A DNA stretch of 64,000 nt from the IMG/VR virus record IMGVR_UViG_3300025543_005580, positions 32,001 through 96,000 of that record; one strand, written 5' to 3'. This DNA is from a virus. Shown here piece by piece: positions 9,506 to 63,790 of the stretch. The position numbers and the translations under genes are program-made. Under the pieces are notes generated by a model that saw only the letters and a program-made list of their open reading frames with translations, did not search any database and was not told where the DNA came from. Numbering within the stretch: the first letter of the stretch is position 1; the number at the start of each line of letters is the position of its first letter.

Positions 9506-9508
9506 GTA

Positions 9509-14489: not shown

Positions 14490-14502
14490 TATATTATTTT
14501 AT

Positions 14503-14511
14503 TATAAATAT
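14503..14511 (-). promoter_or_regulatory. Putative late promoter (fibre C)
   Basis: Conserved intergenic motif. Confidence 0.7.
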
Positions 14512-14512
14512 T

Positions 14513-17026: not shown

Positions 17027-17030
17027 TATA

Positions 17031-17039
17031 TATAAATAT
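17031..17039 (-). promoter_or_regulatory. Putative late promoter (fibre B)
   Basis: Conserved motif 4 nt from the ATG. Confidence 0.7.
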
Positions 17040-19598: not shown

Positions 19599-19607
19599 AT
19601 TCGTTTA

Positions 19608-42385: not shown

Positions 42386-42492
42386 TTTTGTCCTCAATTT
42401 AATTGTTGGAAATACGTTTATTGTTGGCGAGTGCCGAAACGTAATAAATAATTTATTTACTGATGCCATATAGGAAATGGCATATTATACTA

Positions 42493-42597: not shown

Positions 42598-43197
42598 TTA
42601 AATTACCGGACAAGTGCCATTAGCACACAGTATTTCCGATAATATTGTATTTACTTTTAAGTATTTATCTACTTGAACTTCTTGTCCTTCTTTAATCATA
42701 TGCATGTATGATCCTGGGTTTGATGGGGTGGAAACAAAATCCCAACATAATAATTCGAAATCGTCTTGGACTTCTAATACACCATTTCTATCCTCTAATG
42801 AACCCATACCTCGTGATGACACACCAACTTGTACGTTATTTTCAATTAATGCTTTAAGAATATTTCCTGATGTTGTAGGTAGTACTTCAATTTTACCCAT
42901 TACTTGATCTCCATCCCACCACATATCTCTAATAATATGGGATACATTTTTAAGATTGATGATAGAGGATTCTGGGTGGTCTAATTCACCTGTTGCTCTA
43001 TTTTCTTTTACAAGTACTCTGTATTTATCGATTTCACGTTCCCATAGATCTTTTGAATAATAACGACCATTGCCATTTTTTACTTCAGCAGTCGCTAAGA
43101 TACCTTCAACTAATGGGTTACCTGATGGGGCTACCGATTCAGTTAAGCTAACTGGTTTAGCATTAAATGCTTGGGTTTCTATGAGGACCTGTTTCAT
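42598..43197 (-). CDS. Prohead protease (gp21-like)
   Basis: NGNGRYY, GELDHP, VSH, GVSSRGMGS, DFVSTPS motifs. Confidence 0.95.
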   Translation of the reverse strand: MKQVLIETQAFNAKPVSLTESVAPSGNPLVEGILATAEVKNGNGRYYSKDLWEREIDKYRVLVKENRATGELDHPESSIINLKNVSHIIRDMWWDGDQVMGKIEVLPTTSGNILKALIENNVQVGVSSRGMGSLEDRNGVLEVQDDFELLCWDFVSTPSNPGSYMHMIKEGQEVQVDKYLKVNTILSEILCANGTCPVI

Positions 43198-43198
43198 A

Positions 43199-43810
43199 TT
43201 AGTATCCTGATTCTTTATATTTGTCTACATCACCATATCCTGATTCTTTGTGTTTACCTTTAGGTTCAACAACTTTACCAGCTCCTGGAACATCATCTTG
43301 GTAACCATCAATTTTAAGACCAAATGCTGAATTAGTAGTATAGAATGTCATATCTTTAGCTAAATTTTTAGCTACAATATCTTTTAATTCTTTAACTGTT
43401 TTATCTTCATTTTTTGGATCTTCCATCTCAACATAATATCCTGATAAGAATGCTTGGCCATAGATATTATCTATGTTTTTTTCATCTTTGTAGTCATAGT
43501 TTTTAGTTTCTAAATCGACTACATCTTTATCAGTTTCTTTTACTTCTGCCTTTACTTCTTCTGCTAAAAAATTAGCAAATGCTGTTTCGTATGAAGTTTT
43601 TTTAGATGTATGTGTTTGATTAGATTCCAAAGAAATAACACCTCCGATACCTTCAGAAATAATATTTTTACCTTGAAGAATATTTACGGTTTGTTCAAAC
43701 GTATTATTAACAGTGAGAAATTTAGGAAATTGTCTCAATGCTTGTTTTAAAAAGAAATTTTTATCTCCTTTTCCTTCTTTAATTAAATTGTACTGTTGTT
43801 GTAGTGTCAT
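43199..43810 (-). CDS. Hypothetical head-associated protein
   Basis: Lies in the head operon; contains LIKE, IISE and FLAEE motifs. Confidence 0.6.
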   Translation of the reverse strand: MTLQQQYNLIKEGKGDKNFFLKQALRQFPKFLTVNNTFEQTVNILQGKNIISEGIGGVISLESNQTHTSKKTSYETAFANFLAEEVKAEVKETDKDVVDLETKNYDYKDEKNIDNIYGQAFLSGYYVEMEDPKNEDKTVKELKDIVAKNLAKDMTFYTTNSAFGLKIDGYQDDVPGAGKVVEPKGKHKESGYGDVDKYKESGY

Positions 43811-45671: not shown

Positions 45672-47555
45672 TTATTGTTCCTTAATATTACTTTCATCTA
45701 AAAGCGACTCGCCTTCATTCATCAAGCTTAATTTTTTATTAAGAGATTCAAATAATTGTTTATTTTTTAATTTTTCTTGTAATGCTAATGGTGAACCCCC
45801 CTTATATTGTGGTTTAATTGAATCCGATTCGTTATCATCATCTTTCATTCCTTTAGCACCTAAACGATCTTTACCAAAATTATCATCTTGGGTATTACGA
45901 TCTGTTGATTTTTCCTCAGGACGTCCTAATGGTGCTTTTTCATTATACCCATCAGGAACATTTGCTGGGTCTGAATCCATTCTACCAGTTCCATATAATG
46001 AAGCTAGATCATGTGGTGTACCATATGATTTACCTGTTTCTAACGGATCATTACCCTCTGCTTCAATTTGAGTTACGCGGAACTTACGTTTTTGGTCTTG
46101 TACAATTAAATCTCTATATTCATCATATTGATCAACACTGAAATGGAATACGTTTTCATATATCCAATCTGATGGGAATAATTTTGATTCCATCATTGAA
46201 TTGGCTAAATCTACTTTTTGGGTTAATAACGCAATTTTTTCTTGATCATAAATAATAGAAGGTGTTGTTAAACTTAATTCAAAATTAGTTAACGATTCTT
46301 CAGTGTATCCTTGTGTATATAAATGCACTAACGCGATCTTATACAATTCCGATAATACAATACGTTGAATACGATCAATAGTACGAGCAAAACGTATATC
46401 TTCTGCTGCTAATGTAGCTTTACCAGTTAAATCTTTCTCATAACCCATAAATGCTTTAGGCACTTTAAGAGCAGCAAATAATTTATCTCTTAAATATTCA
46501 ACATCTTGAATACCATCATATGTTAGTCCTGGTTGTGTTTCTATTTTGGTAGATGTATCATTACCTCTAATTGGAATATAAAAATCTTCCATTAGGTTTT
46601 GCATGTTATATTTTTGATTATATTCCCCACTTTGTGGATCTATTAATGGAGTACGTTTCATTGTAGAAATAGTTTTCTGCATGAAATTTTCTACTTCATT
46701 TGGTGGAATAGAACCAACATTAATATAGAATGTACGGCGATCAGGACTACGAGATATTCTATGAATTAACATAGCATCTTCCATCAACGCATATTGTTTA
46801 TAAATTCTACGAGCTGGTTCAATATATGAGCGACCATAAGGTAAGAAATTAACATCCGTTAATAAACGGAAGTGAGCCATTTCGTAATTATCGAAATAAA
46901 TAGCATCATCGTTTTCTTGATATGTATTTGGAACACCATAATATCCTGAACCACCTGAATATATTCCTTCTGGGGAGTATTTAAATCTAATAGTACTTGG
47001 GTTTTCTTGATCGTATGCTTCTTGTCTTTCAATATGGTATGCTGTATAAGGTATTACATTATAAACACCAAATTTTTCAGCAATTTCTAATTTAAGGAAA
47101 AAATCACCATATTTGTTCATTTGGCGAATCCATGACCATAAATTAAATTCAATATTTAACACGTCATAAAATAGGTTATATAATATTTTTTGAATATTAT
47201 CATCACTACTTCTAATTTGAAGCACCTCACCCATATCATTTTTTAATGTACACTCATCAGCAATAATATCAAGTGCTGAAGCAACAATAGCGTCATTATC
47301 CATTACATCATAATCTGAGTAGATAAATGTACGCATATATTGGTAATTCATGTTTAGCTGTTGGCCAAACAATGAAGTTGAAGAAGGAGAATAAATACGA
47401 TTGTATTTATCCATCAATGAATTAGTTGCAATGTCTCCCGATTTTTGGATCGAATCAACGTCCATCACTTTAAGTTGGTTACCCCCTTGATTTCTAATGA
47501 TTACATCAGAAGAGAATAAACGTTGTAGTCGAGTAAATAATCTAGTATCTGCCAT
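45672..47555 (-). CDS. Portal protein (gp20-like)
   Basis: EDAMLIHRISRSPDRRTFYINVG, EDFYIP.RG, LFAALKVPK motifs. Confidence 0.95.
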   Translation of the reverse strand: MADTRLFTRLQRLFSSDVIIRNQGGNQLKVMDVDSIQKSGDIATNSLMDKYNRIYSPSSTSLFGQQLNMNYQYMRTFIYSDYDVMDNDAIVASALDIIADECTLKNDMGEVLQIRSSDDNIQKILYNLFYDVLNIEFNLWSWIRQMNKYGDFFLKLEIAEKFGVYNVIPYTAYHIERQEAYDQENPSTIRFKYSPEGIYSGGSGYYGVPNTYQENDDAIYFDNYEMAHFRLLTDVNFLPYGRSYIEPARRIYKQYALMEDAMLIHRISRSPDRRTFYINVGSIPPNEVENFMQKTISTMKRTPLIDPQSGEYNQKYNMQNLMEDFYIPIRGNDTSTKIETQPGLTYDGIQDVEYLRDKLFAALKVPKAFMGYEKDLTGKATLAAEDIRFARTIDRIQRIVLSELYKIALVHLYTQGYTEESLTNFELSLTTPSIIYDQEKIALLTQKVDLANSMMESKLFPSDWIYENVFHFSVDQYDEYRDLIVQDQKRKFRVTQIEAEGNDPLETGKSYGTPHDLASLYGTGRMDSDPANVPDGYNEKAPLGRPEEKSTDRNTQDDNFGKDRLGAKGMKDDDNESDSIKPQYKGGSPLALQEKLKNKQLFESLNKKLSLMNEGESLLDESNIKEQ

Positions 47556-47582: not shown

Positions 47583-49154
47583 TTAAAGAAGCCACTTAAT
47601 GTCCTCTTTCCCTCCATAAGGGTTATCAATTTGGTAAGGGTTACTTCCATTTTTAGTTCCGTATGCACCAACATACGTAGTTTTATTCATACCTCCTAGG
47701 GTAGCTCTAGTCATATCGTGGGAATGTTGTTGGAATTTGAGTGATGTATCTCTTAAATACATCCCTATACCAAAAGCCATTACTAAATCATCATTATAAC
47801 CTGATTGTGCTTCTGGTCTACCATTTCTCCAGATAAATACTTTCATTTCTTCTAACAAACGTTTGGAACGAATTGTTACTGATCTATCACCAACATATTC
47901 TCTAAATTTGTTTACAACTAATGGTCTTGATCTCATAGACATAGTAAATCCAGGGGTCATATCACTATTACCCTCAAATACTTTAAGATAAGCATCTGCA
48001 GTAAATTGGTCTGATTTAGGGGAATGGTATAAATTTGAATAACCACGTTCAATAATTGAATCAATTGTAGCCCAACCAATTGAAGCGTTTTCTACAGCTA
48101 ACATTGCATTATTATATTCGGATCCTAAACCAACTAAAAAATAACCAAATTCTTTAGGAGACATCTGTCCCCTATATTCACCTACTTGTGTATTAGTTGC
48201 AATATCAATTATATGTGCTGTTGAAAAATCTTTACCATCTCCACGAGCAACATCTGCGGTGATCATATATTCTCTAGAATAATCAGCTGCTTCCCAAATC
48301 CATAAGTTTTGATCTACACCTCGTCTTTCTAATGGATCTTGGATTGTTGTTTCTTTTAAAAATTCAATCCATTCATTATAGAATACAACATCTCCTGATG
48401 TACTAAAATCACAATCACATTCTTGTGCAGCCATTCTAGGATCACCTAGTAATTCATCTTGTCTATCTCTCCATGCTTGGTCCCTTTCAGGGTGAACATA
48501 CCAGGGTAGTTTAATAGGAATAAAGTCATTTTCTTTATTTTCAGCTGATACCCATGTTTTGTGGAACCAATTACCCGTACCATAAGGAGTAGATAATACA
48601 ATAGCACCACCACCAGTTGCTAGGGTTTGTTGAGCTGAGGCCCATATTTCACCAATTTGATCAATAAATGCTGCCTCATCAATTAACAACAAGGAAACGG
48701 CTTCTGATCTACCAGCATCACTACTTGCAGATGTTGCTTTTATTTGTGAGCCATTATTTAATCTAAGTGATAATTTATTATTTTCATCAGCTGGTATTTT
48801 AAGCCAAGAAGGTAAGTTATCATACATAAACTTAACCTTAGTAACCATATTACGAGCTGTTTCTTGCTTTGTCGCAATACAAAGAATATTTTTATCCTTT
48901 TGGAATAACATCATCCATAAAGAATAACCTGCTGATAATGTTGAGATACCTAACTGTCTTGATTTTAAAATAATCGAGTATGGGTTATCTCTAAATAAAT
49001 GTAATGTTTTTTCTTGGAAGGGGTATAGATTAAATAATACTCTACCACGTTGTGGGTGTTGAATATTACAATATTTTTTCATAAAATGAGCTGGGTCTTG
49101 AGCACATTTTAAGTATTCTTGTCTAATTATCGATTTTAAATCTTGATCTGCCAT
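47583..49154 (-). CDS. Terminase large subunit (gp17-like)
   Basis: KSRQLGIST, LIDEAAF, STPYG, ADVARGDGKDFS, DDLVMA motifs. Confidence 0.95.
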   Translation of the reverse strand: MADQDLKSIIRQEYLKCAQDPAHFMKKYCNIQHPQRGRVLFNLYPFQEKTLHLFRDNPYSIILKSRQLGISTLSAGYSLWMMLFQKDKNILCIATKQETARNMVTKVKFMYDNLPSWLKIPADENNKLSLRLNNGSQIKATSASSDAGRSEAVSLLLIDEAAFIDQIGEIWASAQQTLATGGGAIVLSTPYGTGNWFHKTWVSAENKENDFIPIKLPWYVHPERDQAWRDRQDELLGDPRMAAQECDCDFSTSGDVVFYNEWIEFLKETTIQDPLERRGVDQNLWIWEAADYSREYMITADVARGDGKDFSTAHIIDIATNTQVGEYRGQMSPKEFGYFLVGLGSEYNNAMLAVENASIGWATIDSIIERGYSNLYHSPKSDQFTADAYLKVFEGNSDMTPGFTMSMRSRPLVVNKFREYVGDRSVTIRSKRLLEEMKVFIWRNGRPEAQSGYNDDLVMAFGIGMYLRDTSLKFQQHSHDMTRATLGGMNKTTYVGAYGTKNGSNPYQIDNPYGGKEDIKWLL

Positions 49155-49735
49155 TATTTACCTATTTTCCAATATAAACGGCCTGTATATATTGGGGTAA
49201 ATTCATTATTTACTCCTATTCCAAAACCGTATGCTTGTCTTTTTTTATTAACAAACAAAATTTCTCCATTTAAATTTTGAATTGCTGTTGGAGAACTACC
49301 TACCGAAATACCCCCGAAAAATTCCCTTTGGTAGATGTAAGAAGTATTAGTAACTGTAATTGTTGGGATGAATATGTTGGGTTGAACATCTCTAAATAAT
49401 ATTGAGTTTTTACTTATAGTGTCATTTATGACAATACTCCCTAATGAATCTAAACTTAAGGTATCCGTGTAGGCGTATGTAGAATAATAATCATTTAAAA
49501 TAAATGCAGTATCAACATTAGCTAAAACAGTATCATGTATAGTAGTAACTTTAGTTCTCCATTTGGGGATATATTGTGTTTTTTCAACAACTACAGTGTC
49601 CCATTTAACTACGGTTTCTGTAATAATTTTAGGTTCAGGAATAGTTTTATTTCCTGAACAACTTCTCATAAGAAGAATTATAACTACTAATACTACTATA
49701 AGTAATGATTGTATATTTTTAAAGAAGTCCTTCAA
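49154..49735 (-). CDS. Membrane-anchored protein, possibly spanin-like
   Basis: N-terminal hydrophobic helix ending MRSC, a DT-rich stalk, and amphipathic C-terminal beta strands ending YWKIGK. Confidence 0.5.
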   Translation of the reverse strand: MKDFFKNIQSLLIVVLVVIILLMRSCSGNKTIPEPKIITETVVKWDTVVVEKTQYIPKWRTKVTTIHDTVLANVDTAFILNDYYSTYAYTDTLSLDSLGSIVINDTISKNSILFRDVQPNIFIPTITVTNTSYIYQREFFGGISVGSSPTAIQNLNGEILFVNKKRQAYGFGIGVNNEFTPIYTGRLYWKIGK

Positions 49736-50081
49736 GTTCTTTTTTAATTTTAGTTAGAGTCTTTAATCGTTTTAAAAGCTCTTCTTTTTCAGCACCTTCA
49801 GCTTTTTTCCATTGATTAACTACCGTTTTCATTTCTTTATCAGTAGCAGATAATTTGGTAGCTATTTTAGCAACTGAGTCACCTTTTTTGATGTCAGCAT
49901 TTGAAGGTTCCATATCATCATCGTCTATATCCTCAGCTAGTCCTGCTTCTTTAGATAATGCAATGGTTTTTTCTAATTCATCATTATATTCTTTTTGGGC
50001 ATCTACATCAGCATCAGAAACCTCAGATAGGATTTCAACTATTTCATTTTTAATGTATTCTTTAAACTCAGACTTTTTCAT
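49719..50081 (-). CDS. Acidic hypothetical protein with an MKKSEFKEYIK...ILSE leader
   Basis: Late motif at 50099-50107; leader resembles an internal segment of the 59360-60676 protein. Confidence 0.65.
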   Translation of the reverse strand: MKKSEFKEYIKNEIVEILSEVSDADVDAQKEYNDELEKTIALSKEAGLAEDIDDDDMEPSNADIKKGDSVAKIATKLSATDKEMKTVVNQWKKAEGAEKEELLKRLKTLTKIKKELEGLL

Positions 50082-51310: not shown

Positions 51311-52693
51311 TTAAAATGTAATATTATCTCCTTGATGATTATCCCATTCGCAAATATACGAACCATTTTCTACTTTACAAAATCGCTCTAAAATATCTTC
51401 AGCAACATATGTTCCTTGTGCTCCTGAAACTGTAATACCACGAGCTGAGAGTGCATCACCTACAAAGTGAACATTATCAAAATCAGCCAATGCCAGATTT
51501 TTATAATCTACAAGTGGCTCAGGTGATAGATATTTTACTTCAGGAATATAAACACCCCAATCATCTCCAAGTGTTGGAAATACTTTTTTCATATCATCAA
51601 TAAAGTCATCAATGTATTTATAGTAACCTTGAAATGCTTCTCTTACTGCATCCATTTTATCAATTGAAATAGCACTTACTATATCACCTTCTGATGTTGT
51701 AGATGGTGTACGAGTTGGACTATAATATAAACCAGTACCTTCTTTATTTACTTTAGATACTAATTCTCTAGACCAAGCAAATGGTTCTTCAATTCCTGGT
51801 ATTTCCATTAGGATACCAAAATTGGTCATATTATTTCTAAACGCTTCATCTTTTTTAGCGTGTCCGTTGTAGCTGTGATCTCCATACGTTTCTTCAACGG
51901 CAACATATGCTGCATTGTTGTTTGTACAGAAAGAACGTAGTGATACTCCTTCATCAAATTTTCTATATAATTTAAAATCATAACTAATATCAATTAGTTT
52001 CTGGAAGTGTTTTTGTGGTGCCTCAAATCGCACCCCAATTTGTACTGGTTTTGGTTCAGTAGGTAGTTCATAATCGTCTGCTAATTGTTTACCAAAATCA
52101 ATACCTGATTTGCCAACAGCAAACATTAGGCGATCATAGCTAATAGGCCAATTTTTAGGATTAATAAATGTTTCTTCTTCTCCTATAAATAATTCTTGAG
52201 AATTAAAATCAATTGAAGTTACTTTAGTCTCCCAAATAAATTTAACACCTTTAGACACTAGATAATCATACCAATTTTTACCAATCTCGTGTAGATAATC
52301 TGTACCAACGTGCCATACAGGAAATAATCTTAAACCGAAATATGGTTTAATAAAATCTGGTTCCGCTACTGGGTTTGAACATTGTACTTCTTCTGGTTTA
52401 GGATGGAAACGTTTGAAATTGGTAATTACCTGATCAAACAATTCCATTGCTTTATCTTCCCCACAATACTTAGACATATGACCTCCAATTGCTGTGTGAT
52501 AAGTTAATTTACCATCACTCCAACCACCAGCACCTAAAAATCCTTCCATCACTTCAGAATATTTTCGGTTATATGGATCTTTACCCATATCGATGATAGT
52601 AATATTATCACCAGGATAACCATTATCTACCAATTTTGTAGCAGCATTAACACCTGCTACACCTGCTCCTACGATTACTAATTTTTCTACCAT
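51311..52693 (-). CDS. FAD-dependent oxidoreductase
   Basis: IVGAGVAG, GAGGWSDGKL, IGVRFE, RSFCTN, FVGD motifs. Confidence 0.85.
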   Translation of the reverse strand: MVEKLVIVGAGVAGVNAATKLVDNGYPGDNITIIDMGKDPYNRKYSEVMEGFLGAGGWSDGKLTYHTAIGGHMSKYCGEDKAMELFDQVITNFKRFHPKPEEVQCSNPVAEPDFIKPYFGLRLFPVWHVGTDYLHEIGKNWYDYLVSKGVKFIWETKVTSIDFNSQELFIGEEETFINPKNWPISYDRLMFAVGKSGIDFGKQLADDYELPTEPKPVQIGVRFEAPQKHFQKLIDISYDFKLYRKFDEGVSLRSFCTNNNAAYVAVEETYGDHSYNGHAKKDEAFRNNMTNFGILMEIPGIEEPFAWSRELVSKVNKEGTGLYYSPTRTPSTTSEGDIVSAISIDKMDAVREAFQGYYKYIDDFIDDMKKVFPTLGDDWGVYIPEVKYLSPEPLVDYKNLALADFDNVHFVGDALSARGITVSGAQGTYVAEDILERFCKVENGSYICEWDNHQGDNITF

Positions 52694-52726: not shown

Positions 52727-52755
52727 AATATACAAACAAAAAGTGGCGCCTCCAA
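52727..52755 (-). promoter_or_regulatory. Sigma70-like promoter (TTGGAG-N17-TATATT) overlapping a terminator
   Basis: Matches the 11424-11452 architecture. Confidence 0.5.
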
Positions 52756-52767
52756 AGGAGACGCCAC
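52738..52767 (-). terminator. Rho-independent terminator
   Basis: GTGGCGTCTCC-TTT-GGAGGCGCCAC followed by TTTTTG. Confidence 0.8.
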
Positions 52768-53524: not shown

Positions 53525-53827
53525 TTACTCTTTCCAAATTTTTATTATTAATTTTCCTTCTCCTTTTATAACACGATGCCATTCGTGTTTTGGAATAAAT
53601 ATAGGCACATTCATTGAAGTTGGTAATTGGTCTTCTAACTGTATTTGCCAATCTGTTTTACCTATAATCTCAATTGTTCTATCTTCATCATCACGATGCC
53701 ACATAAGTTCAATTGGGTCTATATTTTCACTAAATTCCCTAATTGTATATTTGTTGTTGATTTCTATATCAACATAAGGTCTACCAGAAACCTCCGAAAT
53801 TTGATTTGAGTCCGAGTAATTTTGCAT
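53525..53827 (-). CDS. Small cupin-like protein (start uncertain)
   Basis: WHRDDEDR and IPKHEWHRVIKG motifs. The nearest ATG (53827) overlaps the upstream gene. Confidence 0.6.
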   Translation of the reverse strand: MQNYSDSNQISEVSGRPYVDIEINNKYTIREFSENIDPIELMWHRDDEDRTIEIIGKTDWQIQLEDQLPTSMNVPIFIPKHEWHRVIKGEGKLIIKIWKE

Positions 53828-54608
53828 AACGTGGTAAGCGACAAGACCAATATCCTGCCTTTGTTTTATCCTTTTTAGTTGAACATTTATGACGTGCCGC
53901 AAATGCATTACGTGCTTTTTTATCGTTGATTTTAGCTCTTAAACCACCTGAACCGAAACGTACTGTTTTAATTTTCTTGGTTTTAGGATCTTTAACATAA
54001 ACCTTATATGCTTTACCTCCTGAAGAGTCACGCATTGGTTTATTTAATTTTTTATTGTCGTTTTTGGCTTCTTTAAGTACAAACTTATCCACCCAAACAT
54101 CGTGGGTTAATCTATATAATACTTTGTCTGGTATTCTATCTGTGTATATTTTTATTACACCTTCAGTACCACTATGTCTAGTATGATTGATATTCATATC
54201 TTGCAATTTATCAATCATAAGGTCATAATTTTCAGGTCTAACTTTTAATAGAGCATATTTTCTATCATCTTCTCCACCTTCTTCATATGTTCCTTCGTCT
54301 AACATAGGAAAATCTAATGGTACTTTTTTACCTTCAAACATGCCATAATGACCTAAATCTGTTTCTGTTAGAACAGCTAAATCATCTTCATGAGTAATCT
54401 CTAAAATATTACGAGAATATAAAGAACGAGCTTCAGCCCATAAGTTAAAGTAACTATCCGAACCAGCACGATATAAGTGTTCTGTTAGCGGTTTATTAGC
54501 GTCCATATGGTATTTTAAACCTTCAGACAATATAGCACGTGGAGCTAAACTTTCGTTGAGCATTAACGTTGATTTTGTATCGCAAGTATTACATCCGCAG
54601 TCGCACAT
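53781..54608 (-). CDS. Modular protein with a basic C-terminal domain
   Basis: Cys-rich start, LNE/LSE/LDE/LKE junctions, and KVYVK..KTVRFG...FAARHKC...AGYWSC domain recalled from large DNA viruses. Confidence 0.65.
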   Translation of the reverse strand: MCDCGCNTCDTKSTLMLNESLAPRAILSEGLKYHMDANKPLTEHLYRAGSDSYFNLWAEARSLYSRNILEITHEDDLAVLTETDLGHYGMFEGKKVPLDFPMLDEGTYEEGGEDDRKYALLKVRPENYDLMIDKLQDMNINHTRHSGTEGVIKIYTDRIPDKVLYRLTHDVWVDKFVLKEAKNDNKKLNKPMRDSSGGKAYKVYVKDPKTKKIKTVRFGSGGLRAKINDKKARNAFAARHKCSTKKDKTKAGYWSCRLPRYAKLLGLKSNFGGFW

Positions 54609-55819: not shown

Positions 55820-56113
55820 TTATTTTACTATTACTTTAAATAAACCTGGGTGTTCTTTTTCGAAATATTTAGCTTGATTATAGCTACGACCAAAAACAAA
55901 TTCATCTAATTCATCTGCATCAGTATATGTCGTAACATCTACTTCACCATCTTCTATTTCATCTTCAGTACCAAATTCATATGGAGAATCTGCTAATTCA
56001 CCTGACTCAACGTCAAAAGCTATTTCTGGGGTTAGAAGTTCAATGTGGTAATCCACTTCTTCTTCAAATAAGCGGCCTTCAGCTAAATATTTTTTTAAAT
56101 TGAAATTGTTCAT
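55820..56113 (-). CDS. Putative internal head protein, KYLAEG leader family
   Basis: Starts MNNFNLKKYLAEGRLFEE. Confidence 0.7.
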   Translation of the reverse strand: MNNFNLKKYLAEGRLFEEEVDYHIELLTPEIAFDVESGELADSPYEFGTEDEIEDGEVDVTTYTDADELDEFVFGRSYNQAKYFEKEHPGLFKVIVK

Positions 56114-56141
56114 TGTTTTATTTTTTTATTTTAATTTTATT

Positions 56142-56672
56142 TTAGATGATATAATACAAATCGTCTTTTAACATTTTCCTCATTTCATCTTTACTGAATT
56201 GAGGGATTGGTTTTCCATTAGCATCCATTTTAAATGCAGGAAGGAATTCTCTTCCATCTTCATCAGATAATTGTGGTATAGCATAAATTTCAATATCACC
56301 ATTACTATGGATTTCTACATACCCCTCATCTCCAACAGCATACATACCAGGTTTAACCATTTGAGCTACCATATCAAAATCGTAGGGATAATCATTTTCT
56401 TCAGCAAATTCTTTTTCGTATACATTAGAATTAAAGCTAAAATTATTATAAAATTTATTAAATTCTTCTTCGTTCCAAGGGCCTGATTGGTTATAGCCAT
56501 ATATATCATCATTTACTCCATCATAATATCCTGCACCACCTGAACCTACTCCCCCTAAAAGACCATCATCAAATCTAAATCCTGCTTTTACGAGTACATC
56601 TTCAATGTCTCTTAGTTCTTCTTTTAATAAGCGACCTTCGGCTAAATATTTTTTTAAATCAAAGTTATCCAT
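56142..56672 (-). CDS. Putative internal head protein, KYLAEG leader family
   Basis: Starts MDNFDLKKYLAEGRLLKE. Confidence 0.7.
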   Translation of the reverse strand: MDNFDLKKYLAEGRLLKEELRDIEDVLVKAGFRFDDGLLGGVGSGGAGYYDGVNDDIYGYNQSGPWNEEEFNKFYNNFSFNSNVYEKEFAEENDYPYDFDMVAQMVKPGMYAVGDEGYVEIHSNGDIEIYAIPQLSDEDGREFLPAFKMDANGKPIPQFSKDEMRKMLKDDLYYII

Positions 56673-56704
56673 TTTATTTTTATTTTATTTCCTTTTATTT
56701 TATT

Positions 56705-57262
56705 TTATTCGCTTGCTAAATCCATAGCATATTGTTCAACTTCATCGGCATCATACCCAAAATCTTCAACATCTTCTATAAATTCTGCTTTACCATTAGT
56801 AAGTATATTAGCTAATACAGTACCTGCTTCTCCTAAAGCATACTCAAAATCTTCCATTTTACTAAGATCCATTATAGCAGATTTAAAACTTTTTTTCTGT
56901 ATGGGGGTAAGAAAAATTGGTTTTGATTCTTCTTTTTGTTTTTGAATTGGTTGAGATGGTTGAGATGGTGGAGTAAGTTTTTGTAAATTTAAATCGTTAT
57001 CCCAAGTTAATTCATAATCCATTAATTTTCCTGTATTAGTTTCCGCTGTAACATTAGCCTGAATTGCTTTATGCTGTATCTTGTTGTTTTTGGAAGATGT
57101 AACCCTAATAGATTGTATAGGATCTAATCCGTTTTGTTCATTATATGTTGATATTATTGGGAATGCCATTTTTTCAATTTCCTCCATACCAACATTCACA
57201 AAGTTTTCTTCTTCAAATAAGCGACCTTCAGCTAAATATTTTTTTAAATCAAAGTTGTTCAT
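56705..57262 (-). CDS. Putative internal head protein, KYLAEG leader family
   Basis: Starts MNNFDLKKYLAEGRLFEE. Confidence 0.7.
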   Translation of the reverse strand: MNNFDLKKYLAEGRLFEEENFVNVGMEEIEKMAFPIISTYNEQNGLDPIQSIRVTSSKNNKIQHKAIQANVTAETNTGKLMDYELTWDNDLNLQKLTPPSQPSQPIQKQKEESKPIFLTPIQKKSFKSAIMDLSKMEDFEYALGEAGTVLANILTNGKAEFIEDVEDFGYDADEVEQYAMDLASE

Positions 57263-57281
57263 TTTATTTTATTATTTTATT

Positions 57282-57803
57282 TTATACTTCTATATCTGTT
57301 GTATCGTCAACTTCTACATCTATTTCTTCAGTATCACTACCTTCTCCTGGTGATGAGGTTGTTGATGCGGTATCTGATGCTTCTAAAGCTGCTTCATCTC
57401 CCATTTCAGCATCGCTGTTACCATAAGATAACATACGAGCTATAGCTTCAATAGCTCTTTCTTCCTCATTTAAATTAAGTAAATAATATTTTTTACCTTC
57501 AATTTTAGCAATCCAACTACGAACTGCCCAAATTAAATAAAATACTTCATCATTTGCTAGTACAATTCTAAATGTAGTAGGTTTTGGAGCTACCCATTGG
57601 ATATCTTTAACGAATGTTTCAAATTGATCCGTTAGCATATCAACTAATATTCTCTTTAGTTCTGGGAATTTTAAGAGCATTGGAAATTTTTCAATTTCTA
57701 AATCTATAGTGGAATTACCCCCATCCAAATCAACGAATGATCCTGGTTTGTATACTTGGCTTACAAGTCCTTTGATTTTATCTCTTAATTCTGATTTAGT
57801 CAT
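57282..57803 (-). CDS. Hypothetical protein with an MTKSELRDKIK leader and acidic tail
   Basis: 173-aa ORF, translationally coupled to the upstream gene. Confidence 0.65.
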   Translation of the reverse strand: MTKSELRDKIKGLVSQVYKPGSFVDLDGGNSTIDLEIEKFPMLLKFPELKRILVDMLTDQFETFVKDIQWVAPKPTTFRIVLANDEVFYLIWAVRSWIAKIEGKKYYLLNLNEEERAIEAIARMLSYGNSDAEMGDEAALEASDTASTTSSPGEGSDTEEIDVEVDDTTDIEV

Positions 57804-59146
57804 TATTTAGACTTTAATTTTTCTGCTAATCTTTTAGCAATTTTTTCGGCTTTACTTAAATCGCCTTTATTCATTGCTTTTCTAGCTTGTTGGAGTTGAT
57901 AAGTTTTAGATATATCTCCTTTATGTTTATTCAATGCCTTTTGAATAGCAGAAGCTAACATATCAGCTTTACCTGGGGTTTCTTCGTTTATTTCAATATC
58001 ATCAACAACATCAACTTCCATTTCAGGGGTGATATCATCCATTCTATCTACTACAGCATCAATTGCTGGTTCTTTTAGTTCAAAATCTAAGTAATGCTTA
58101 GCACCTACAATAGCTGATTTAGCATTTGAGATTTTTGATTGCCACCAATGTGGTAAATCAACTTCTCCTTTACCTTCAAAATCATCCATCATTTGGTATA
58201 ATTCCATAGCATATTTTCCAATACGATATAGATCACCTTTTAACATATGAGGTTCGTTATCTTGATGACCAAGATCCATATCTTCTTGCATCATGTCCTC
58301 ATCTTCATCTTCTTCCTCACCGTATTCTTCAATTTCGTCTACGATTGAAGCAATTGTAGTATCGTATCTGTTTGAGCTAGAACCTAAATCGAAAGCACCA
58401 TATGCGTCTCCTTTACTAAGGTAAGATGGGAAGTTTTGTGCGATAATATCTCTGGCTTGATCTCCTAATACTTGGAGTTCATCTAAGATATTTCTTAGCT
58501 CCATAAGAGCTTCTACTTTATCTTCATTTAATGCATTTTCACTTAAAAATTTAGCTTTTGCTGCTTTAAAATCACCTTTGTATAGTTGTTTAACTATTTT
58601 ACGTCCTAAAGTTTCTAATTGATCTAAATCTAAAGAATGAGGTTTACCAAATCCTTTTAAATATGCCGCTCCAATGTCTCCATACTCTGCAGGATCAATT
58701 ACATCTTCAACACCTTCTTTTAGATCACCTAATTCCTTAGCTGCTCTAACAAGATCATTTCTTGCTTCATCTTCACCAACACCTCTGTATTTGGCTATCT
58801 TTTTAATAGCCATTTTAGCAATGCGTTTTTCTTCAGATGAAGAACTTTCATCTAGGTTTTTTTCAATTGCCGCGCCACGTTTTTCTTCGTAATCTGAAAG
58901 TTTACCATCTTTATTTAGATCGGCTGCTTTAGGATTTTTAAGAGAATCTTTAATCATCTCTCTAACTTTATCTTGATTCATATTTTCAGTTTTTTTCTTA
59001 GCCATATTAGTTGCGCGACCATACATTACTGCTTCCGCGTCCTTACCATAACGTTTAACGAAGGACCTCTTATTTGTTTTGAGGTCCATTATCGCATCTT
59101 CTCGATTTTCGAGTTCTTGTTTAGTAAGTTCGCGTTCGTTAAGCAT
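57803..59146 (-). CDS. Modular acidic putative head polyprotein
   Basis: Start moved to MLNERE because the upstream part overlaps the Hc1-like gene. DLNKDGKLSDYE and LPHWWQSKIS modules; LDE/LKE/LNE/INE junctions. Confidence 0.65.
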   Translation of the reverse strand: MLNERELTKQELENREDAIMDLKTNKRSFVKRYGKDAEAVMYGRATNMAKKKTENMNQDKVREMIKDSLKNPKAADLNKDGKLSDYEEKRGAAIEKNLDESSSSEEKRIAKMAIKKIAKYRGVGEDEARNDLVRAAKELGDLKEGVEDVIDPAEYGDIGAAYLKGFGKPHSLDLDQLETLGRKIVKQLYKGDFKAAKAKFLSENALNEDKVEALMELRNILDELQVLGDQARDIIAQNFPSYLSKGDAYGAFDLGSSSNRYDTTIASIVDEIEEYGEEEDEDEDMMQEDMDLGHQDNEPHMLKGDLYRIGKYAMELYQMMDDFEGKGEVDLPHWWQSKISNAKSAIVGAKHYLDFELKEPAIDAVVDRMDDITPEMEVDVVDDIEINEETPGKADMLASAIQKALNKHKGDISKTYQLQQARKAMNKGDLSKAEKIAKRLAEKLKSK

Positions 59147-59156
59147 GTGTTTTTTT

Positions 59157-59312
59157 TTACTTGTGTCCTCTTTTGAAGTCAGCGGATAAGTTTTTGATTT
59201 TGTTAGCGGCAGATCTACATCTTCCTTTAGCTGCAGCTGATGTTTTGTCAATTTCTGCTTCAATCAATAATACTTGTTCTTTGATTCCTTCTAATAATTC
59301 TTTAGTTTCCAT
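59157..59312 (-). CDS. Histone H1-like (Hc1-type) small DNA-binding protein
   Basis: Read by hand, below the ORF-track cutoff: METKELLEGIKEQVLLIEAEIDKTSAAAKGRCRSAANKIKNLSADFKRGHK*. Resembles the K.AAxxRxRxA...K.L...F(R/K) pattern. Confidence 0.65.
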   Translation of the reverse strand: METKELLEGIKEQVLLIEAEIDKTSAAAKGRCRSAANKIKNLSADFKRGHK

Positions 59313-59359
59313 AATTTTTATTGTTTTATAAATTTAATTGTTTGTTTATTTTTATTTTA

Positions 59360-60676
59360 TTATAATAATTTGTTTATCAAGCCATCGTTACCTCTACGAA
59401 CTGTAGATTCGTTAATTGACTCATTATTATCTACTTTAGAAACGTGTGCTCTAGTAAAGTAAGTAATTGTATTACCAATTTGATCAGTTAGTTTTTCATC
59501 TCCTAATTTTTCAGCTTCTTCTTGAGCTTTCATTAGTAAACTTTGAACTGCGATTTCATCTTCACCTTCACCTGGCATACTACCTTTTACGTCAATATCG
59601 GTTTCAACTGATTCATCATCAACTTCAACATCTTTTTCAATGTCAACATCAACTTTTTCGTTGTCTTCAACATCTACTTCTTCTGCTTCATACATATCAT
59701 CTCCTTCATCCATATCTTCTATTTCGGCTACTGGGTCATATGCATCTGTAGTATCATTGATTGTGATTTCAGCTTCAGCCATCATAGCTGCTTTAATCAT
59801 TTCTTTTAACTCTGATTTTTTCATTTTAGTTTTATTTTCGTTTAATTCAGTAGGCATTTCTTCATCTACTATTTCTTCTTTGGTATATGATTTTCCACAC
59901 ATTTTTTCGTATAGTTTTTCCATCTTGGCTTTTCGTCTTTCAAGATCTTTAACTTCACGCTGCATTTCTTTCATTTTTTTCTTATCAACTAATTGCGATA
60001 AGTTATCATCCTCAGTAACCATTGAAATTCTTTGGTTTTTAGATTCGATCATTTCATCAATAGCTGCAATTTTAGCTTCTAAAGCAACAACTTGTGATTG
60101 TTTTTCGATTTCAGCTAATTTGCTGTCTACTGTTTCTTTTTTCATTTTATTTGATTTTGTTTTTTTAATTTCTTCTTCTTTAATTTCTTCCATGTAGTCG
60201 CTCATTTCTTTTCTGCGCTCCATATAATCGGTTTCTACATCATCAGTCATACCAAGATCCGCTTTGGAATCTTCGGCTGAAATGATTTCAATTTCGCCTT
60301 CAGGGGTAATATAAGCTACTTTAGCATTTCTTGAAGCAGCATTAGTAACTAAATAACCATCACCTTCAGGACGGATTACAAATGAACCACCAGCATAATC
60401 ACCTAAATAATTAGCAATACCGAATCCTCTACTGTCTTCCCAATCATCACCTGGTGTGTTAGGTCCTGCTTCTACATCTAAATCAAAACCACCACCACGA
60501 GGATCAGCTTCAATTGAGTTAGGTGTAATTATATATTTAAGATCTAATTCATTATCTTCAGCTGTAAATTCATCAGCAACTGCTTGAGCTACTTTTTGAA
60601 CTAAATCATCAGTAAGTTCTACTTCGTTTAGTAGCTTACCTTCAGCTAAATATTTTTTATAATTAAAATTATCCAT
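59360..60676 (-). CDS. Modular putative internal head polyprotein, KYLAEG leader family
   Basis: Starts MDNFNYKKYLAEGKLLNE; internal MKKETV and MKKSELKEMIK modules. Confidence 0.7.
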   Translation of the reverse strand: MDNFNYKKYLAEGKLLNEVELTDDLVQKVAQAVADEFTAEDNELDLKYIITPNSIEADPRGGGFDLDVEAGPNTPGDDWEDSRGFGIANYLGDYAGGSFVIRPEGDGYLVTNAASRNAKVAYITPEGEIEIISAEDSKADLGMTDDVETDYMERRKEMSDYMEEIKEEEIKKTKSNKMKKETVDSKLAEIEKQSQVVALEAKIAAIDEMIESKNQRISMVTEDDNLSQLVDKKKMKEMQREVKDLERRKAKMEKLYEKMCGKSYTKEEIVDEEMPTELNENKTKMKKSELKEMIKAAMMAEAEITINDTTDAYDPVAEIEDMDEGDDMYEAEEVDVEDNEKVDVDIEKDVEVDDESVETDIDVKGSMPGEGEDEIAVQSLLMKAQEEAEKLGDEKLTDQIGNTITYFTRAHVSKVDNNESINESTVRRGNDGLINKLL

Positions 60677-60692
60677 TCCTAATATATTTATG

Positions 60693-60701
60693 TATAAATA
60701 T
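60693..60701 (-). promoter_or_regulatory. Putative late promoter (cargo array)
   Basis: Conserved intergenic motif. Confidence 0.7.
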
Positions 60702-60703
60702 GG

Positions 60704-60997
60704 TTATTTTTTAGACTGATACGTCCCTTTCTTGTATTTTGCAGATTTTGTGTTTTTAACAAATTGTTTACCTTTTTTATCACCACGGACTTTTTTAGCT
60801 ACTGTAGCTTTTCTTTCTGCCTTTGTTAAGGATTGAGCTTTTTTTCTAGGCAAACATCTAGTAGTTGCTTTACCTTTTTTCATAGTACCACAAGGGCCAG
60901 TAATGTTACCAGCCGTATCAATTCGAACCCAATCCTCTTTTTTAAACCAATCGCGAAGGGATTCTGAAATTATTTCTTGTAGTCTTTCGTTTGTCAT
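60704..60997 (-). CDS. Small basic protein after an IISE leader
   Basis: SLRDWFKKEDWV...GPCG...RCLP..KA.SL...ER; Lys/Arg-rich. Confidence 0.65.
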   Translation of the reverse strand: MTNERLQEIISESLRDWFKKEDWVRIDTAGNITGPCGTMKKGKATTRCLPRKKAQSLTKAERKATVAKKVRGDKKGKQFVKNTKSAKYKKGTYQSKK

Positions 60998-61578
60998 TAT
61001 GAAACTGCGTCTTCAACAGCACCTTTTAAAATAGTATTTACTTCAATACCTTTAATTGCTGCTTTTAAACTATATATTCCACCTTTAAGATAACTTGCTT
61101 TTTTAAGATAAGCAACAGCTTCACCTCCTGCTTGACCTGCCATTAAGAAGATTATAACAGCATATAATACATCGGATATCCATTTTTGTTTTTTGGTGTC
61201 TTTAGTAAAGATACTTACTATTCGTTTAATTGGAGCTTTAAATGCTTCTTCATTTTTATGAGTAAAATCATAAATTTTCTTGGCGGCCTCTTCACCTTTA
61301 CCAAAATTATGTTTAGCAAATTGTTTTTTAGCAAATTTAGAAAGCATATTAGCTATTGTATTAGATAATAAAATATATCCTATAATACTAACAGTAATTG
61401 CTACCTCATTGATTTCTTTATCGGACTTTTGAATTTCTTCTTTATGGTCTTCTAATTCATCTTTAATTTCATCTGCTAGATCATCTGCAAATGCATCTAA
61501 TTCAGCACCAAATTGATCTTCTTCACTTTCAAATAGCTTGCCTTCAGCTAAATATTTTCTTAAATCGAAATTATCCAT
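60997..61578 (-). CDS. Putative internal head protein with hydrophobic helices, KYLAEG leader family
   Basis: Starts MDNFDLRKYLAEGKLFES; hydrophobic segments follow INE. Confidence 0.7.
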   Translation of the reverse strand: MDNFDLRKYLAEGKLFESEEDQFGAELDAFADDLADEIKDELEDHKEEIQKSDKEINEVAITVSIIGYILLSNTIANMLSKFAKKQFAKHNFGKGEEAAKKIYDFTHKNEEAFKAPIKRIVSIFTKDTKKQKWISDVLYAVIIFLMAGQAGGEAVAYLKKASYLKGGIYSLKAAIKGIEVNTILKGAVEDAVS

Positions 61579-61608
61579 TTTATTTTTTCTTTAAGGGGTT
61601 TAGTTGAA

Positions 61609-62004
61609 TTAACTATTTTCCCAGTCTTTTTTTCTTCTATCTACTTCTTGGTAAAAAGCTTCTTCTCCTTTTTCTTTCCAACTTAAATAATCAGCATATT
61701 TTTCAGGAAAACTAACTATCCATTTATTAATAGCATCATAAGCCTTTTTAACAGATTCAGGTGAAGGATTTATTCTAGGAACAGAGACATCAAATTGGCC
61801 ATCCCACCATCCTGTCATATCATCATTCCAATCGATTCTGAATACATCTGGAAATCGCATAGTTCTAAGTTTTGCTCCTGTTTTGATTTCTAAATCTTTA
61901 GCCATTTGTTCAAAGTCATTAAACATTTCTTTTCTTGAAGGAGTAGTTTCTTGTTCAAATAATCTACCTTCAGCTATATATTTTTTTAAATCGAATGTAT
62001 CCAT
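61609..62004 (-). CDS. Putative internal head protein, KYLAEG leader family
   Basis: True start is MDTFDLKKYIAEGRLFEQ at 62004; the track's longer start overlaps the upstream gene. Confidence 0.7.
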   Translation of the reverse strand: MDTFDLKKYIAEGRLFEQETTPSRKEMFNDFEQMAKDLEIKTGAKLRTMRFPDVFRIDWNDDMTGWWDGQFDVSVPRINPSPESVKKAYDAINKWIVSFPEKYADYLSWKEKGEEAFYQEVDRRKKDWENS

Positions 62005-62005
62005 T

Positions 62006-63790
62006 TTATTTTTTCTTTTTTCTTCCAGACATTTGTCCTTTACATACTTTAACTGCACGACCTGATAAATAAGCAGATGATTTTTCTCCTGCTGCTTTAC
62101 GTCTTTTGATATATGCCTTGCCTTTAGGACATAATTCTTCTTCAATTACACCTTCACCTAATTTAATAGTTTCGGCTAATTCTTGAGCCACTGATTTTTT
62201 CTTTTCATCACTACTATGACCAAAGGTTTTATGAACTAGTTTATCTAATTCTTTGTGAAATTCATTTTCCTCGTCTTCTGTAGCTTCATTTACACCATCA
62301 AAATCTCTTTGTTTTAAAGCAGCCATAATAGCGTATACAGCATCTTGTTCGCTATAATCGTATCGTTTAGCCATTGCCTTAATAAAACGACTTACTGCTT
62401 TAGATACTTCAGGATTAAGTGATTCTTTTATTTCACCTAACATGTTTGGATCCATATTAATGAAATCATCTGATACAGCAAATACTTGGACAACTCCATT
62501 TTCTTTATCTACTATGTCGATGTCTTCTAAATCATATTCTGCTTTCAAATCTCTAGCTACATCACCAGCTAATCGCATAGCTTCAGCAGCACTTTCTCTT
62601 CGGATTTGACCAGTCATTGTTTCTTTACCTAATGCAATTGATGAACCACCTGGTCCTAAATCATATTCGATATTAACATATAGGAAGTTAGGGAATTTTT
62701 TATCTTTAACATAGCTAGGCATAGATACTCTTGCTCTAGAAGCTTCAGCTATTGATTTACCTCGTTGTTTAGCTTTTCTAACTAATGAATTCCAATTAGA
62801 TAAATCATATTCATCCCATGGTTCAACCTCCATTTTATTGAATGTTTTTTCTTGACCTTCTACTGGTTTGCTATTTAGGTAATGTGTTTCGTTTTGAGTT
62901 AATTCAAAGAATCTATCTACTTGATCTTGGGTAGGCATTTTGCTTTCACCTTCAGCTATTGCTTGATCATAGGTCATTTCTTTTCTACCTGATAGTTTAG
63001 CTATTACTTTATCAATACGATTTAATTTACTACCATATTCATCAGCAATTGGCCCACCTTCTGGTTCAGCTTCTTGCTCCATATCACGCATTAATTGTGC
63101 TCTTTCTTTTTTGAGGAATGCTATTTTTTTAGCATTATCAAAGAATTTATCGTTACCATCATCACCAGCATTAGCAGCTCTCATTTTAGCTAATTTATCT
63201 TTAGCAGCTCTCATTTTCATAAGAACTGGGTCATTGATGTCCATTTCTTCTAAATTGCCTGCTTGAAGTTCGTACCCCCAACGCTTAAGTTTAGCTTCTA
63301 ATTCAGCTTTATCTTTAGCTTCAAAATCGAATGAATCGTTTACACCATAGTAACCCATACCTCTTTTATAGATTTTAGTTTCACCAGCATCACCTTTAGG
63401 ATCATCATAGATAGCAATTTCACCATCGGTAAATGTACCTTCGTTTACTGATTCTTCATAGTAATCTTTATGACCACCGTTTACTCTAAAAATATCGCTA
63501 TATTCTCTTCTTGAATAATTTGATGAATCACCTGAAATAGTGATACCTGAATTTCCACCCCAATTCAAACCTGCTGAATCTAGTCTTTGACCAATGTCAT
63601 CAACAATTTCATCTGGGGAATCTTGGCCTGTAATAATATCAATTTCATCCCATTTTGGAACTAACATTATAGTGAATGGGTAGGTTGATTTGCTTAGTAT
63701 TTTAACTACTTTATCAAAATCTTCTTTTGTTACCTTATTTTCTTCTAAAGGTTTAGAAAAGAATTCTTGTATTTTTTTAATATCTTCCAT
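62006..63790 (-). CDS. Modular putative head polyprotein
   Basis: Unrelated-looking 50-110 aa segments separated by PLEE, SVNE, NLEE, AIAE, SIAE, IKE, GVNE and LAE; basic C-terminal module. Confidence 0.65.
   Translation of the reverse strand: MEDIKKIQEFFSKPLEENKVTKEDFDKVVKILSKSTYPFTIMLVPKWDEIDIITGQDSPDEIVDDIGQRLDSAGLNWGGNSGITISGDSSNYSRREYSDIFRVNGGHKDYYEESVNEGTFTDGEIAIYDDPKGDAGETKIYKRGMGYYGVNDSFDFEAKDKAELEAKLKRWGYELQAGNLEEMDINDPVLMKMRAAKDKLAKMRAANAGDDGNDKFFDNAKKIAFLKKERAQLMRDMEQEAEPEGGPIADEYGSKLNRIDKVIAKLSGRKEMTYDQAIAEGESKMPTQDQVDRFFELTQNETHYLNSKPVEGQEKTFNKMEVEPWDEYDLSNWNSLVRKAKQRGKSIAEASRARVSMPSYVKDKKFPNFLYVNIEYDLGPGGSSIALGKETMTGQIRRESAAEAMRLAGDVARDLKAEYDLEDIDIVDKENGVVQVFAVSDDFINMDPNMLGEIKESLNPEVSKAVSRFIKAMAKRYDYSEQDAVYAIMAALKQRDFDGVNEATEDEENEFHKELDKLVHKTFGHSSDEKKKSVAQELAETIKLGEGVIEEELCPKGKAYIKRRKAAGEKSSAYLSGRAVKVCKGQMSGRKKKK

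Follow-up and report, generated by a model that had tools for sequence, protein, structure and literature searches.

The 64-kb stretch of DNA analysed here (the window) corresponds to bases 32001-96000 of one 111,989-bp phage genome, and its minus strand carries six genes whose otherwise unrelated products start with the same 18 residues. This N-terminus, hereafter the tag, is probably a bipartite head-loading leader of the T4 style that would be cut by the head protease of the phage. The tag itself, the motifs in it, its distribution, its use as a joint inside longer proteins and its links to the head-gene module are all seen directly in the DNA.

The six genes start at positions 56113, 56672, 57262, 60676, 61578 and 62004 and encode, in the same order, proteins of 97 (55820-56113), 176 (56142-56672), 185 (56705-57262), 438 (59360-60676), 193 (60997-61578), and 131 (61609-62004) amino acids (aa). 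The first 18 residues of all of them match M(D/N)(N/T)F(D/N)(L/Y)(K/R)KY(L/I)AEG(K/R)L(F/L)xE, as in the leader MNNFNLKKYLAEGRLFEE of the 97-aa protein, which has an acidic body with an isoelectric point (pI) of 4.05, and the leader MDTFDLKKYIAEGRLFEQE of the 131-aa protein. Residues M1, F4, K8, Y9, A11, E12, G13, and L15 are invariant in the six-protein alignment, and the conserved columns end at about residue 18. An earlier note on this DNA had described the six genes and their tags, all of which exist, but had set the shared stretch at 15 residues. A degenerate 29-nt back-translation of F-D-L-K-K-Y-L-A-E-G matched the window only at these six genes, with 0.00 matches expected from 100 shuffles. 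A seventh copy was located outside the window (genome positions 9044-9607) with a tag profile run on all six frames of the genome, and no others were found in this search of the whole genome. Once stripped of the tag, the six bodies showed no pairwise BLASTP similarity (lowest E = 1.2), and the seven tagged proteins of the genome fell into seven separate BLASTP clusters, which bears out the claim of the same note that the proteins diverge completely past the tag.

A scan of IMG/VR contigs with the same DNA pattern recovered at least 119 stretches, the source of the 160 distinct tagged proteins to which the following statistics on position, covariation, and clusters refer. The motif was found three residues past the initial Met, thus N-terminal, in 151 of 163 occurrences, and positions left unconstrained were conserved too (M1, N3, K/R14, L15, and a Glu at 17 or 18). 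The bodies of these proteins formed 71 BLASTP clusters, 45 of them singletons. At 112 of 118 tagged loci at least one untagged gene was held in common with the genome studied here, so the tag belongs to the relatives of this phage. On a broader scale, a 30-column tag profile compared with 1.84 billion representative proteins retrieved 1358 clusters at E <= 1e-3 (63 at E <= 1e-10), whose link to T4-type heads is drawn from the IMG/VR sample; the members that were looked up were all unnamed metagenomic proteins, some of them present on up to eight contigs. The earlier note expected variable payload sets from such a scan, but not all payloads are variable, as the 193-aa one turned out to be conserved, with 496 homologues. 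The motif strings were not found in any searchable paper, nor did a virion proteome from the clade turn up there.

The six copies in the window are also nearly identical as DNA over the approximately 55 nt of the tag and ATG region, and A-rich stretches precede the tagged start codons throughout, as is typical of Bacteroidota genes, which have them in place of Shine-Dalgarno sites. Both features would suit a nucleic-acid element, in which the conserved 55 nt and the A-rich upstream sequence would constitute a translation-start or recombination cassette and the peptide would be incidental; repeats of this kind can drive cassette exchange. We find this scarcely credible. Over 147 tags, synonymous codons vary freely whereas the residues stay fixed (F is encoded by TTT 80 times and by TTC 67 times, the basic residue 14 by six different codons, and L15 by TTA, CTA, TTG, and CTT), so selection appears to act at the peptide level and a purely nucleic-acid role is unlikely. 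In addition, half of the tag recurs in frame inside long open reading frames (ORFs), at sites that call for no translation start. With the six DNA copies so nearly identical, recombination between cassettes could be favoured, and it may aid shuffling as a side effect.

At the peptide level, the tag is built around two protease motifs. The T4 head protease cuts after the Glu of (L/I)-x-E, and the first such motif of the leader, L-A-E at residues 10-12, is invariant. A second one lies at residues 15-17 in 81 proteins and at 16-18 in 64, in none of them at both (145 of 160 in total), against a background rate of 0.8% per position in the bodies. Residue 16 is L or I in 64 of the 71 proteins that lack Glu at residue 17 and in 0 of the 81 that have it there; residues 15-18 thus covary so as to keep one cleavage motif. 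The first half of the tag, with an invariant aromatic residue at position 4, ends in Y-L-A-E, in parallel to the F-I-A-E of the T4 leaders, which read MKTYQEFIAE in the internal proteins (IP) IPII and IPIII and MKTFKEF...ITE in IPI when taken from the T4 genome. Within the T4 leader, targeting depends on residues 4 and 7, and residues 8 and 10 control processing (PMC9026906).

The cargo bodies behave differently from the leader with respect to this motif. When one representative per cluster was compared with composition-preserving shuffles, the bodies showed 88 copies of (L/I)-x-E versus 123.8 +/- 10.2 in the shuffled sequences (z = -3.5, 0 of 500 shuffles as low), whereas the motif is enriched (z = +4.1) in the other 94 proteins of the genome. 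Such avoidance is what would be expected of proteins that survive beside an active protease, and suggests that the bodies do so.

A protease of the appropriate type is encoded in the window, within a head module whose long ORFs are all on the minus strand. The order of transcription is large terminase (47583-49154), portal protein of the gp20 family (45672-47555; PF07230, 1.7e-65), three genes coding for 285, 322, and 203 residues, prohead protease of the gp21/S77 family (42598-43197; PF03420 Peptidase_S77, 7.4e-30), scaffold-like protein (probably 41276-42385), and major capsid protein of the gp23 family (39591-41249; PF07068, 2.2e-76). The arrangement portal, three small genes, protease, scaffold, and capsid protein parallels that of the T4 head genes, 20-67-68-21-22-23, and the homologues of gp23, gp20, and gp21 indicate that this phage builds a T4-type head. 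The gp21-like assignment already made in the earlier note was confirmed by the family match and by alignment to the T4 gp21 structure 5JBL (6.6e-16); the motifs D-H-P and V-S-S-R-G are invariant among 12 homologues, and the protease itself has L-I-E at residues 5-7 of its own N-terminus.

Leaders of a related kind are present on other proteins of this module. The scaffold gene, listed as ORF 41276-42469, probably starts at an internal Met, because its relatives all begin there; the resulting 10-aa leader M-A-T-N-R-N-L-L-K-E, conserved across dozens of relatives as M-A-(T)-N-R-D/N-L-L-K-E, precedes a protein with 14 copies of (L/I)-x-E in all. The 203-aa protein encoded directly upstream of the protease (p203, 43199-43810) starts with M-T-L-Q-Q-Q-Y-N-L-I-K-E-G-K-G, a tag-like arrangement of 12 residues and then E-G-K (leader MTLQQQYNLIKE, followed by GKG). 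Finally, alignment of the capsid protein to mature T4-type chains predicts a maturation site between M-L-E51 and N-Q-A-K-Q, the counterpart of I-L-E followed by N-Q-A-K-Q in Flavobacterium phage vB_FspM_immuto (immuto), which would fit a protease for which P1 remains Glu and P3 remains hydrophobic. Immuto is the nearest cultured phage by capsid protein (54.6% identity), followed by Microcystis phage Mel-JY01 and Rhodothermus phage RM378. No nucleotide-level relative was detected among 50,697 phage records by megablast of 20 kb, and tblastn with the 185-aa tagged protein gave no match against cultured phages. The host is probably a marine member of Bacteroidota.

Part of the tag is also used inside proteins. 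The sequence (L/I)-(A/T/S)-E-G-(K/R)-(L/I) was found well inside the protein in 78 of the best 150 profile matches, and among these matches 70 of 85 internal sites lacked the M-D-N-F-D-L-K-K part and kept only the L-A-E-G-(K/R)-L-x-x-E half. The second (L/I)-x-E was kept in 63 of 67 distinct joints, with no conservation of the sequence upstream. The modules that flank these joints occur elsewhere as separate tagged genes, and the jointed chains of related viral contigs occupy a locus syntenic with the tagged locus of the window. The 438-aa protein, which the earlier note had counted as one payload, is tagged but consists of a chain of three modules: its residues 181-280 show 55-70% identity to the C-terminal part of long p203-type proteins, which in relatives are encoded directly upstream of the protease gene, and at residue 286 an internal leader of a second type (M-K-K-S-E-L-K-E-M-I-K) precedes a module that in relatives is a separate gene.

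The 176-aa cargo showed that leaders can be exchanged in front of one body. Its 164 homologues have a body that always starts at the same place (E-L-R-D-V-E-D-I-L...), standing behind at least seven leaders that all end in x-x-E, most of them in (L/I)-x-E, directly before it. These are the 18-residue tag, M-K-E-L-Y-R-F-R-Q-F-L-T-E-G-I-I-K-E, M-K-D-F-D-L-R-K-Y-L-A-E-N-K-L-L-K-E, M-A-K-F-N-Y-V-K-W-V-T-E-N-K-Y-G-K-L-L-K-E, M-K-K-L-L-T-E-R-F-Q-E-L-A-G-L-K-P-L-Y-T-L-Q-E, M-N-K-E-L-L-R-M-Q-K-L-A-G-L-I-T-E-S-E-L-K-E-K-L-S-L-N-E, and M-D-N-F-D-L-R-K-Y-L-S-N-N-P-L-L-K-E; some copies of the body come after an internal joint instead of a leader. An AlphaFold2 model of the protein (51 sequences) predicts a globular body folded from about residue 21, with a mean predicted local distance difference test score (pLDDT) of 87.3 and values above 90 for most of residues 21-176, preceded by a flexible leader in which residues 1-20 have low confidence and a short helix is placed at 6-11. 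Removal of the leader by the prohead protease is thus suggested, indirectly, by motif depletion, by the polyprotein joints, and by the position of the domain boundary. The match of Y-L-A-E/Y-I-A-E to the gp21 pattern, on which the earlier note had relied, holds, but judging by the domain boundary and by the joints of the polyproteins, the second L-x-E site at residues 15-18 would be a cut site of at least equal importance.

The tag type is not the only leader in this group of phages. In this genome two other types are found, one on a 120-aa protein (49719-50081, minus strand; leader MKKSEFKEYIKNEIVEILSE) and another on a Zeta_toxin-like P-loop kinase and its neighbour. The kinase bears the full tag in three related contigs, and here (genome positions 100352-101149) the 10-residue leader M-I-L-L-T-E-L-L-K-E; its 125-aa neighbour (genome positions 99978-100355) has a 9-residue leader, M-K-L-V-D-I-L-N-E, both genes lying beyond the window end. 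Next to them, a 783-aa protein (genome positions 97626-99977) with cytidylyltransferase-like N-terminal and 5'-3' deoxyribonucleotidase C-terminal domains has the leader M-N-S-L-T-K-S-L-I-S-E. The leader of the 120-aa protein, M-K-K-S-E-(L/F)-K-E-x-I-K...(L/I)-x-E, is the second type already mentioned at residue 286 of the 438-aa protein; it is also found on several immuto proteins, on approximately eight proteins of a complete 171-kb relative and, weakly, at 57282-57803. In immuto, a variant of the tag (M-E-N-F-D-L-K-K-F-L-V-E-N-K-L-T-x-N-S-K-(I/L)-L-K-E) is present on at least four proteins, and a divergent leader variant is encoded directly after the protease gene. The complete 171,684-bp relative has eight proteins starting with M-K-x-x-(D/E)-L-(K/R)-x-(I/L)-I-(K/R)-E...L-S-E, three with the 10-residue leader M-I-x-L-x-x-I-L-K-E, four with ...R-(L/M)-Q-x-L-A-G-I, and two of the immuto type. 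Several leader families thus exist, and the tag type is one that has expanded within a single subclade.

Leader-bearing genes were also found next to the head genes themselves. In 11 related contigs a tagged gene lies 800 nt or less from the protease gene, mostly between protease and scaffold, and in seven of them at 50 nt or less. When relatives were sampled through the protease instead of the tag, the protease-scaffold site proved empty in most of them, and where genes were present they often carried leaders of several types (M-K-D-F-D-L-K-K-Y-L-A-E-N-K-L-L-K-E, M-D-N-F-N-L-T-A-Y-L-A-N-N-I-L-L-K-E, and, in two cases, ...R-R-M-Q-L-L-A-G-V-I-T-E). The tag was detected within 10 kb at 4 of 80 protease-anchored loci, a span too short for an arrangement such as that of the window, where the tags are 12.6-19 kb from the protease. 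These insertions bear on whether the leader could serve for processing only, as a removable N-terminus or linker cut in the cytoplasm, by the head protease or another one, to release products that act in the cell unpackaged. Joints that keep just the cleavage half of the tag would fit such a role, as would the acidic bodies, the enzymes among the cargo (the Zeta_toxin-like kinase and the nearby nucleotidyltransferase/nucleotidase chain), and the terminator-like hairpin that separates tagged from head genes here. However, the M-D-N-F-D-L-K-K-Y half, which a cleavage site alone does not need, is strictly conserved at true N-termini, leader-bearing genes have been repeatedly inserted in the head morphogenesis cassette, scaffold and p203 have related leaders, and the T4 protease acts on the assembled prohead core (PMC5694885), so we consider processing without packaging unlikely.

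The nature of the cargo was approached through several searches. Neither Pfam nor PHROGs gave a match for any of the six cargo bodies, and among 69 representative cargo proteins the only family match was Zeta_toxin. For the model of the 176-aa protein, Foldseek matched nothing in the PDB (best E = 0.09) or in BFVD and a wide search with VIA-align reached a best Z of 4.2, so that nothing convincing emerged as a structural neighbour; in a protein atlas search with the seventh cargo, all scores stayed below 0.9. The 193-aa protein is predicted to be all-helical, with hydrophobic segments at about 58-80 and 133-158, and may be a core component and not a variable payload, because it is strongly conserved (the 496 homologues mentioned above). 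The interchangeable payloads proposed in the earlier note are supported by the unrelated bodies and by the swapping of leaders on the 176-aa family, but the 193-aa member behaves as a conserved core gene. Conservation among the tagged cargo of relatives is highest in a Cys/His-rich protein of 145 aa (C-x-N-C ... G-Y-C-W-M-H-x-F-K-C-H ... T-C-R-T-W; e.g., related loci L021:943-1383 and L096:7093-7527), which has the look of a domain that binds metal or an iron-sulfur cluster; this family is absent from the window, had no Pfam match, and gave nothing below E = 0.25 in a PDB profile search.

Conservation of the 193-aa member as if it were a structural gene, together with bodies that are acidic like the scaffold and a module of the 438-aa protein common to p203-type head proteins, would also agree with tagged proteins being expendable filler of the core, that is, auxiliary scaffold or core parts that assist in building the prohead or setting its size, are cut, and then leave or are degraded like fragments of the scaffold, and not delivered cargo. 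This is distinctly improbable, as the bodies avoid the cleavage motif whereas the scaffold has 14 sites, which suggests that the former survive the protease, the diversity of at least 71 unrelated families among 160 proteins is far beyond structural need, and the one body modelled with high confidence, that of the 176-aa protein, is a compact globular domain.

The commonest neighbour of the tagged genes, at 52 of 118 loci, is a gene coding for a 460-aa FAD/NAD-type dehydrogenase (51311-52693 in the window), which is 76-86% identical across relatives, above the capsid protein. Its frequency could be taken in favour of a recognition leader, through which one phage enzyme or chaperone would modify or escort many substrates in a capsid-unrelated process. 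This co-occurrence, however, follows from synteny, the tag positions covary to keep a protease motif and not a modification site, and partial tags serve as in-frame joints. The dehydrogenase was rejected as the partner enzyme because no homologue of it is present in immuto, a phage with at least four proteins that bear the leader variant. As the dehydrogenase was the only candidate, no tight two-way linkage between tag and enzyme, of the kind seen in the logic of ribosomally synthesised and post-translationally modified peptides (RiPPs), was found, and we regard a recognition leader as very improbable.

In the scheme that we favour, that of a bipartite head-loading leader, the first half of the leader (M-D-N-F-D-L-K-K-Y) would dock the new protein to the scaffolding core during prohead assembly, and the shell would then close around the core. 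Inside the prohead, the gp21-type protease would cut after L-A-E, after the second (L/I)-x-E, and wherever modules of a chain are joined; the small leader peptides would leave, and the freed bodies, mostly small, acidic, and folded, would stay in the head and exit with the DNA at infection. Docking and cutting by this protease are what we infer from the features described, and so are the persistence of the bodies in the virion, their entry into the host, and any role as effectors. Docking, shell closure, and cutting, taken together, we hold to be probable, with an appreciable share of doubt, whereas delivery into the host and an effector role are somewhat doubtful.

Several observations weigh against this scheme. 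The resemblance between the tag and the T4 leaders is limited to the aromatic residue at position 4 and the aromatic-(I/L)-A-E, a stretch too short for statistics. The tagged genes of this genome are 12.6-19 kb away from the protease gene, with a strong terminator-like hairpin in between, downstream of the tagged genes (52743-52767, minus strand; 11 pairs, eight of them G-C, and a T-run). Five large relatives (130-172 kb) with a protease 75-77% identical are almost without this leader; a scan of the whole records yielded two near-matches, and therefore the leader is not required by that protease family and its type is that of a subclade. Whereas the bodies of the T4 internal proteins have a pI of 9.0-9.5, those of the present cargo are acidic (median pI 4.45, 74% below pI 5), so their fate beside the packed DNA may differ. 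Finally, some of the cargo are enzymes or look redox-related (the Zeta_toxin-like kinase and the Cys/His-rich 145-aa protein) and need not be packaged.

Comparison with known systems showed the closest parallels with the capsid-targeting sequence of T4, present on IPI, IPII, IPIII, and Alt and removed by gp21. Both are short N-terminal propeptides, putative in the case of the tag, on otherwise unrelated proteins, with an aromatic residue at position 4 and an aromatic-(I/L)-A-E end followed by a small residue, both belong to a phage that encodes a gp21-type protease, a gp22-like scaffold, a gp23 capsid protein, and a gp20 portal, and in both the set of cargo proteins differs greatly from one related phage to another (PMC3012670, PMC9026906). 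The leaders of IPII and IPIII have 10 residues and one cleavage motif, the tag 18 and two; sequence homology between them cannot be demonstrated, and the cargo of the present system is acidic instead of basic. Further differences are the seven copies per genome and more than 1300 metagenomic clusters, the second half of the leader doubling as the in-frame joint of multi-module chains, and a probable marine host from the Bacteroidota; Flavobacterium is the host of the closest cultured relative.

In the giant phages phiKZ, 201phi2-1, and SPN3US, whose proteases (gp175/gp245) are distant gp21 homologues, many head-protein propeptides are cut after Glu at several sites each (PMC5694885). SPN3US also has identical N-termini on the diverged paralogues gp53 and gp54, as well as a processed ejection protein with a transmembrane segment (PMC5694885), such as the 193-aa protein may have here. 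However, those propeptides are mostly longer than 100 residues with the motif (S/A)-x-E, and the processed proteins are families of paralogues and not unrelated bodies behind one portable short tag. Encapsulin cargo-loading peptides are likewise short and portable and direct diverse cargo into an HK97-fold shell, but their usual place is the C-terminus, and they attach to the shell protein itself and stay on the cargo, with no involvement of protease or scaffold. That a leader loads proteins into the head is already established in T4, and it has been proposed that T4-like phages use this device in general (PMC3012670, PMC9026906). With respect to the literature reached, several things are new: this family of leaders, a two-part build in which the second site covaries, the use of the leader again at module joints, the scale on which it occurs, cargo that is acidic, and a cultured Flavobacterium phage with a variant of the leader.

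In addition to the genes described above, untagged genes at 53781-54608, 60704-60997, and 62006-63790 interleave with the tagged ones and code for proteins with very basic, Lys/Arg-rich C-termini; homologues of these three basic-tailed genes were found at up to 48 of 118 related loci. The one of 275 aa among them has an N-terminal C-x-C-G-C-x-x-C knuckle followed by L-x-E sites. Elsewhere in the window, the G+C content rises from about 0.30 to 0.41-0.47 over positions 12000-30000, where giant fibre-like genes are located, including an ORF of 4333 aa (19608-32609).

The proteins that a phage packs into its head take effect in the host as infection starts, before the expression of phage genes, and some of those of T4 inhibit host restriction; beyond a small number of model phages, such proteins can be found only by virion proteomics. 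For the family studied here, we consider it a fair way from settled, and slightly less than an even prospect, that an abundant clade of marine T4-like phages, probably growing on Bacteroidota, loads a large, fast-changing repertoire of proteins by means of a few portable leaders and delivers it with its DNA; the cargo being loaded as single units or as protease-jointed chains is part of that proposal and equally tentative. If true, injected phage effectors could be predicted from sequence alone in uncultured ocean viruses, and the leader would be a ready packaging tag for a Flavobacterium phage model, with immuto, a cultured relative bearing a variant of the leader, making the idea testable. 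A sequence-recognisable leader tied to the protease and present on hundreds of unrelated families would list candidate early-acting proteins of uncultured marine phages, and would also show that cargo can be swapped in modules at protease joints.

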